In this document: one piece after another, positions 29,094 through 30,362 of the stretch | How the letters are laid out: each line of letters begins with the position of its first letter | How positions within the stretch are numbered: the first letter of the stretch is position 1 | NCBI GenBank assembly: GCA_964016885.1 | Contig: OZ024740.1 | Coordinates: forward strand, 293,136,001 to 293,200,000 | From: Eledone cirrhosa | Taxonomy: Eukaryota | DNA: 64,000 nt | Direction: 5' to 3' | The notes under the pieces: generated by a model | What the model saw: only the letters and a program-made list of their open reading frames with translations | Databases searched by the model: none | Told to the model about the DNA's origin: nothing | Position numbers and translations under genes: made by a program

Positions 29094-30362
29094 TAAATTG
29101 AAACAAAATGAAAACGAAATTTCATTTCTCACTCTTAGTATGGCACTTACTTAAATGTACTAGTACATCGTTCCTGTGTCAGTGTTGAACAAAAAGGTGA
29201 CGTGGTTGCCTTAACACCGTATGGCATAAATTCAGGCTGTTCAGTTTGTTTACAAACGAACAAAGCGACGTTAGCGCCGCTAAACTGATACGTGCATATA
29301 TGTATGTGTACCTGTATGCATATGTATATATATATATGTATATATATATATATATATATATATGTGCATGCTACTGTACGTCTGTATACATATATGTATG
29401 TACGTATACATGCATACTTACATTTAAGTAAGTGCCATACTAAGAGTGAGAAATGAAATTTCGTTTTCATTTTGTTTCAATTTATCGTTTTCGGTATGCC
29501 TGACCGATTTAACTCACTCAATATGCAAATTAGGCTGCTCAGCCGTTAATTTTCATAAGGAAAGTATATACTTTCGAACGTTCAACTATCTGGCAGATGG
29601 GTAAACGGAGCTGATGATAGCTAACAAGCTTGAAACTAGTACATCGTTCCTGTGTCAGTGTTGAACAAAAAGGTGACGTGGTTGCCTTAACACCGTATGG
29701 CATAAATTCAGGCTGTTCAGTTTGTTTACAAACGAACAAAGCGACGTTAGCGCCGCTAAACTGATACGTGCATATATGTATGTGTACCTGTATGCATATG
29801 TATATATATATGTATATATATATATATATATGTGCATGCTACTGTACGTCTGTATACATATATGTATGTACGTATACATGCATACTTACATTTAAGTAAG
29901 TGCCATACTAAGAGTGAGAAATGAAATTTCGTTTTCATTTTGTTTCAATTTATCGTTTTCGGTATGCCTGACCGATTTAACTCACTCAATATGCAAATTA
30001 GGCTGCTCAGCCGTTAATTTTCATAAGGAAAGTATATACTTTCGAACGTTCAACTATCTGGCAGATGGGTAAACGGTGCTGATGATAGCTAACAAGCTTG
30101 AAACTAGTACATCGTTCCTGTGTCAGTGTTGAACAAAAAGGTGACGTGGTTGCCTTAACACCGTATGGCATAAATTCAGGCTGTTCAGTTTGTTTACAAA
30201 CGAACAAAGCGACGTTAGCGCCGCTAAACTGATACGTGCATATATGTATGTGTACCTGTATGCATATGTATATATATATGTATATATATATATATATATA
30301 TGTGCATGCTACTGTACGTCTGTATACATATATGTATGTACGTATACATGCATACTTACATT
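29094..30362 (+). mobile_element. Tandem array of about 2.6 copies of a ~468-bp HHR-containing unit (retrozyme or tandem pseudo-LTR-like)
   Basis: HHRs at 29604-29648 and 30072-30116: aacggtg CTGATGA t agc-taacaa-gct t GAAA ctag TA catcgtt; flanked by (TA)n. Confidence 0.88.

Follow-up and report, generated by a model that had tools for sequence, protein, structure and literature searches.

The window, by which we mean the whole 64,000-nucleotide stretch of Eledone cirrhosa DNA analysed here, carries a tandem array at 29159-30364 with a period of 468 bp, 2.56 units and 98% matches. The first-pass annotation had described about 2.6 near-identical, head-to-tail, non-coding units of 468 bp, and this description is borne out: no open reading frame of at least 150 amino acids is listed in the repeat (simple-repeat frames were filtered out). 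The features of the locus are given below, with unit position 1 defined as the first base after the predicted ribozyme cleavage.

28803..29092, no strand: left (TA)n flank, the insertion target
29093..29159, minus strand: short inverted arm, or 'tail', unit positions 246-312; outer end at fixed site B
29159..29165, plus strand: inner junction of the two arms, with one shared base, within stem III
29159..30364, plus strand: long arm of 2.56 units, from unit position 462 round to 253; outer end at fixed site A
29590..29660, plus strand: type I hammerhead, copy 1; core from 29611, predicted cleavage after 29641; one stem I mismatch
29762..29891, plus strand: long TA-rich hairpin of unit 2, unit positions 121-250
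29887..29953, plus strand: internal tail copy between site A (unit 244-253) and site B (unit 308-313)
30058..30128, plus strand: type I hammerhead, copy 2; core from 30079, predicted cleavage after 30109
30365..30557, no strand: right (TA)n flank

Differences among the units are confined to the inner (TA) tract and one substitution. When the array is cut at the predicted cleavage sites (after 29165, 29641 and 30109), the pieces measure 476, 468 and 255 nt, the last being partial. GC content is approximately 37% outside the excluded tracts, the predicted circular fold of the unit (computed without a shuffle control) is 68% paired at -153 kcal/mol, and two small hairpins are predicted in the internal tail copy. 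The 67 bp at 29093-29159 are the exact reverse complement of 29419-29485; an inverted copy had been noted previously, as 65 bp, and is indeed present, but its role as a second arm ending at site B had been missed. The plus arm begins 6-7 nt ahead of the predicted cleavage site, the two arms overlap by one base, and this exact inner junction occurs once in the genome. Since both flanks are (TA)n, no target-site duplication can be read. Assembled contigs from four runs of unknown kind cover the unit and the unit-to-unit joint (at 29090-29660); they are compatible with a circle and with tandem DNA alike, and none bridges the inner junction. The window copy alone shows no circle, because its three units are not identical, differing at one base and in the length of the tract. 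Two neighbouring structures, a perfect 213-bp palindrome lacking a spacer (27558-27983) and a 316-bp inverted repeat with a 208-bp spacer that adjoins the array (30600-31439), are possibly other two-armed or MITE-like insertions.

The array contains two complete hammerheads, in consecutive units, and the first unit retains the 3' half only; the cores lie 468 bp apart (29611 and 30079), as the earlier claim had it. In copy 2, stem I has 7 bp plus an extension, stem II has 4 bp and stands on a U.U pair, and stem III is a palindrome of 2 bp; for hammerheads with such a stem III dimerisation is said, in the part of the literature consulted here, to be required (PMC4209133). A search of the window repeat against Rfam gave nothing at the gathering score, the best match being a sub-threshold Hammerhead_HH9 (E 0.21), and so the ribozyme call relies on the core motif and the stems read from the sequence. 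TA-rich microRNA families among the Rfam matches were rejected, all lying far under the gathering score. Elsewhere in the window there are at least five other families of hammerhead-like cores, one of which occurs four times (positions 5353, 6692, 11722, 14163, 17846, 19923, 24426, 28281, 49145, 56948 and 59372).

The window array is one copy of a large dispersed family with thousands of members. A 23-mer spanning the cleavage site of the ribozyme has 17,027 exact matches in the 3.0-Gb genome (control, 0), and a 53-mer typical of the young subfamily has 5,369. The stretches that we examined surround the first listed matches of three patterns, leftmost on the largest contigs, and form a non-random sample. 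Many of these insertions consist of two arms, from 0.1 to 19.7 seamless units in length, that diverge from an inner junction. On the RNA 3' side such arms stop at one of two places, site A at positions 244-253 or, approximately 60 nt further on, site B at 308-313, where they run into (TA)n with a match of 2-3 nt of TA/AT; the long arm can carry either end. Among 110 stretches scored with a regular-expression caller, all 59 diverging end pairs joined an A to a B, with no A+A and no B+B; a further 53 ends were unpaired (33 B, 20 A), and seven stretches had no end called. We take this pairing to be the Penelope 'tail' signature. The first-pass annotation did not recognise it. The 67-bp piece in the window, with its end at site B, is thus the B arm, and it broke off close to the point at which the A arm begins. 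In two other insertions (L039, L045) the 5' ends of arms are joined, in the same orientation, to reverse transcriptase (RT) coding sequence that we presume, from its motifs, to be LINE-like. A search of accessible papers, in their main texts, found nothing on paired A+B ends or periodic A>G arrays in retrozymes.

The unit holds no open reading frame with RT and GIY-YIG domains, nor is one attached to most copies, and we therefore regard the repeat as something other than an autonomous Penelope element. A Penelope family that we call H1 is young, intact and Hydra-clade-like. A 32-mer from H1 has 1,030 exact matches genome-wide; 11 of 150 scored matches lie in open frames of 821 codons, and dozens match the RT piece at 100% identity. 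Its assignment to the Hydra clade is from motifs, with no tree: a DKT motif, a CxCx5C linker, a C-terminal GIY-YIG, a hammerhead and a (TA)n target. The GIY-YIG match (E 0.003) is under the cut-off, the whole protein has no Pfam match, and no solved structure matching it was found. In 20 stretches, all 13 two-ended H1 copies had the A+B arrangement, with a tail of 90-95 nt compared with approximately 60 nt in the repeat. Three insertions among the 110 stretches are chimeras in which an H1 arm and a repeat arm contribute complementary ends: an H1 B end with a repeat A end in L057 and L146, and an H1 A end with a repeat B end in L067. L057 and L067 prompted the search for H1, and L146 came from a set picked by the repeat alone. 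A fourth chimera (L038) involves a sister family of H1. Among other candidates, L209 was rejected as an H1 chimera, being joined to another small element, and L206, L211 and L215 were judged separate insertions from positions alone.

The proposal that the repeat is mobilised by a Penelope-like element (PLE) is thus upheld by the strict pairing of ends, by the same ends in H1 and by the chimeras. The repeat does not look like a solo pseudo-LTR (pLTR) of a Penelope element in this genome, since homology between the unit and the repeat region of H1 could not be detected. Comparison with H1 revealed no parent pLTR; the other families were compared in part, and a parent may be among them. Because the unit is non-homologous and because two repeat B arms (L032, L209) are paired with another small element, H1 is a likely, rather than a proven, working partner. 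We consider it unlikely, though deserving of serious attention, that circles are the template while another Penelope family does the work and the H1 chimeras record occasional cross-use. That reading would account for the lack of homology and the different tail lengths; several other Penelope families lie nearby, and none of 19 H1 loci beyond 42 Mb on contig C1 had a unit within 1.5 kb. Against it, H1 is the partner in all three clear chimeras of the 110 stretches, each with complementary ends, the fourth is with its sister, H1 is young and intact, and other families used as bait yielded no chimeras.

Several related insertions were seen along the way. At 6979-7264 the window contains a tiny two-armed H1 insertion (B arm approximately 220 bp, A arm approximately 64 bp) of the same architecture, and broken Penelope elements related to H1 lie at 60886-63738 and 15023-16390 (their main pieces show 43-61% identity at the protein level). 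At 13152-13883 there is a further Penelope-like type, whose GIY-YIG match is weak. The short abundant element that forms the opposite arm to retrozyme B arms (L032, 3359-3405; L209, 2021-2090) also occurs in the window at 10634 and 22455, which suggests further non-autonomous passengers of the same enzyme.

We counted the substitutions carried by the repeat in 48 stretches of young copies, excluding positions 100-113 and 148-196 and the lineage marker. Of the 29 that recur inside one insertion, 20 are A>G on the ribozyme strand and one is T>C, whereas singletons are strand-symmetric (13 A>G and 15 T>C among 92). The excess is significant by Fisher's test (p 5e-8), remains so when the array L155 is left out (p 0.0017), and is seen when insertions are the unit of counting (9 vs 1, p 0.021), although 11 of the 20 repeated changes come from a single insertion. 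Ten of 21 repeated A>G sites fall in the long hairpin, which holds 23 of the 122 A residues, and most of the repeated changes in other copies map there as well (unit 121-250). The same sites recur on other, older subfamily backgrounds, in copies chosen by pattern and uncontrolled.

We think it likely that the repeated A>G changes reflect A-to-I editing of the RNA. That they are instead errors of transcription or copying, or a lineage bias, with no involvement of ADAR, seems to us distinctly unlikely, but two kinds of observation speak for it. ADAR enzymes have characteristic neighbour and pairing preferences. At the repeated sites a 5' G is not depleted and a 3' G is not favoured, and predicted pairing is not higher than at other A residues (0.59 vs 0.58). 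In addition, a genome-wide test with a 31-nt piece of the tail (5,941 exact matches) revealed no strand bias, with 45 A>G matches at eight sites and 83 T>C matches at 15 sites, or 5.6 and 5.5 per site; the tail may be spared such changes or be under selection. What errors or bias would not readily produce are as many as 11 changes of one type clustered in one unit, on the ribozyme strand, at hairpin sites that recur on different backgrounds, while singleton changes show no strand preference.

How an insertion's units resemble one another bears on the nature of the template. Units of one insertion usually share an inner-tract signature and private substitutions across both arms. In L142, all nine inner tracts are identical and one substitution is common to both arms; L139, L144, L157 and L161 have a similar pattern, and a sub-lineage marker (390 matches) recurs with locus-specific periods, again in both arms. 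Long arms of 15.0, 15.8 and 19.7 units all have seamless joints. In L155 (C1:160.405-160.411 Mb), an arm of 11.7 units strictly alternates a unit X, with ten listed A>G changes plus tract changes, and a unit Y with fewer. The inverted arm consists of the end of X followed by the start of Y, in phase with the long arm, and the two arms start within one and the same Y unit, one at A and one at B; the X pattern was found at no other young-subfamily locus. A three-unit pattern occurs five times with one skip over the 19.7 units of L167+L171 (L167, C3:306.76-306.77 Mb), and at G000:C2:69558770-69562596 units with one and two A>G changes alternate with a period of 474, at eight of nine expected positions among the matches listed. 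The simplest source of these two- and three-unit arrays would be a dimer or trimer circle copied many times. The earlier suggestion of a circle of approximately 468 nt as template consequently gains support as to the circle, but the templates appear to have included dimers and trimers as well as monomers.

A distinctly unlikely alternative keeps two-site Penelope priming but takes as template an uncut linear multimer transcribed from an existing array, with unequal exchange or slippage lengthening the long and periodic arrays later at the DNA level. In vitro, the anole Penelope protein acts mainly on uncut RNA (PMC11167929), stems II and III of the window ribozyme are weak, and not every array is regular: L136, L138, L163 and L169 are mosaics with no clean period (L138 borders a gap), and an array of approximately 30 kb or more at G000:C3:12272283-12302023 has irregular periods in the match listing. 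The last suggests later DNA-level expansion at some loci; this array, at C3:12.27-12.30 Mb, is perhaps turning into a satellite. On the other hand, a new variant can come to be shared by every unit of both arms only by way of a single unit. Because editing differs from molecule to molecule, six identical X units with ten A>G changes need one molecule to be recopied, and because the two arms of L155 are in phase and their end partial units do not overlap, unequal exchange in a two-unit register would have no substrate.

Inner junctions are uniformly distributed round the unit (52 positions, KS p 0.74), and just one lies within 10 nt of the cleavage site, with 2.3 expected. The 52 were taken by hand after setting aside one position at an N gap, three pieces or internal fragments, and three arms that belonged to older copies close by. 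The first-pass annotation had drawn attention to the start of the window array inside stem III; the arm does begin close to the cleavage site, but with junctions spread so evenly this position is due to chance, and a special role for the palindrome, as a fold-back or cleavage-linked start, was rejected. The absence of a peak at the cleavage site likewise makes cut linear monomers an unlikely template. Copying of such monomers one after another through template jumping is very improbable: switches do occur (L057, L067), but junctions do not pile up at the cleavage site and the unit joints at the ribozyme are seamless. In L146 (1776-1966), approximately 190 bp between the arms are copied from DNA 200 bp past the insertion, which suggests a template switch onto flanking sequence. 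An ordinary minisatellite or an assembly artefact, to which the long (TA)n setting of the array might point, is scarcely tenable: copies are dispersed in their thousands, their ends are fixed and their ribozyme is conserved, and the units of the window array differ from one another.

On these grounds we hold with considerable confidence that the repeat is a non-LTR retrozyme whose two diverging arms in (TA)n were made by a Penelope-type RT copying circular RNA from both nicked strands. Rolling-circle copying into (TA)n, as first proposed, draws its support from the ends and periodic arrays of other genomic copies and not from the window copy by itself. We incline, with more reserve, toward a fuller scheme in which an RT dimer binds a single circular ribozyme RNA at its two fixed sites, starts synthesis from both nicked (TA)n strands and rolls from both, so that the genome contains thousands of cDNA fossils, among them A-to-I edited dimers and trimers, and editing feeds sequence evolution. 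In the main reading, arrays would be transcribed, and hammerheads acting as dimers would release monomers, and sometimes dimers or trimers, that are ligated to circles, some of the RNAs having been edited beforehand. The Penelope protein, probably a dimer, would bind the tail and nick both (TA)n strands, priming a cDNA at each of sites A and B through the 2-3 nt TA/AT match. Each cDNA would then circle the template for a variable number of rounds before the cDNA 3' ends are joined, with an overlap of 0-5 nt or a few extra bases. For the window copy, the A-primed cDNA would have gone 2.56 rounds, and the B-primed cDNA would have ended 67 nt on, close to the other's starting point.

Rolling-circle mobilisation of retrozymes and the origin of the tandem, inverted and tail structures of Penelope elements have been proposed for a decade, as hypotheses or with partial in vitro evidence. 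This family offers a natural read-out of both, in its strict A+B pairing, its in-phase periodic arms with RNA-type changes and its young, intact partner protein, and both questions could be tested with one 468-nt RNA and one protein of approximately 800 amino acids. If the scheme is true, an edited circular RNA is being written back into a germline genome.

At the level of sequence, the repeat can be classed as a non-LTR retrozyme, with a non-coding unit, GC below 50%, consecutive hammerheads and dispersed high-copy occurrence. In the part of the account of metazoan non-LTR retrozymes compared here (PMC7229834), the likeness extends to the short non-coding tandem unit, the low GC, the type I hammerhead and, as in the axolotl HHR_Amex2, the U.U pair at the base of stem II. 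A circle and a Penelope partner are proposed in both cases; rolling-circle reverse transcription and the Penelope partner are presented there as hypotheses. The circles of metazoan retrozymes were shown by northern blot, whereas the evidence for the Eledone repeat comes from genome sequence. Fixed paired ends, an inverted second arm and periodic arrays, seen here, are not described in that part of the account. Retrozymes of Xenopus (bioRxiv 10.64898/2026.07.22.740005) also co-occur with Penelope elements, and the window repeat, with its two consecutive complete ribozymes, fits the definition of an active retrozyme given there. The evidence in Xenopus is co-distribution and pLTR homology, many families having a parent pLTR; here none was found, and the evidence is shared end architecture and chimeras. 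Local tandem amplification was suggested for the Xenopus elements, and eight of nine predicted elements gave no cleavage.

Parallels are also found in Penelope elements themselves. Anolis Poseidon (PMC11167929) has two internal start sites downstream of the hammerhead that bound a tail, as here, and likewise both target strands are cut and extended at an AT-rich target, with a predicted protein dimer; ribozyme cleavage was dispensable in vitro. Poseidon is autonomous and was tested in vitro, with a tail of 30-40 nt and homology-free priming, whereas the tail here is approximately 60 nt, priming would use the 2-3 nt TA/AT match, and the strict pairing of one A with one B is read from genomic copies. 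Hydra-clade Penelope-like elements, as far as the portion of PMC8557442 considered here describes them, share (TA)n targeting, an inverted 5'-truncated arm and a tail at one end, but they have an open reading frame and the repeat has none. The element is of a type already known; what is unusually direct is the evidence that its genomic copies give for two-site priming and rolling-circle copying, and an intact candidate enzyme can be named.
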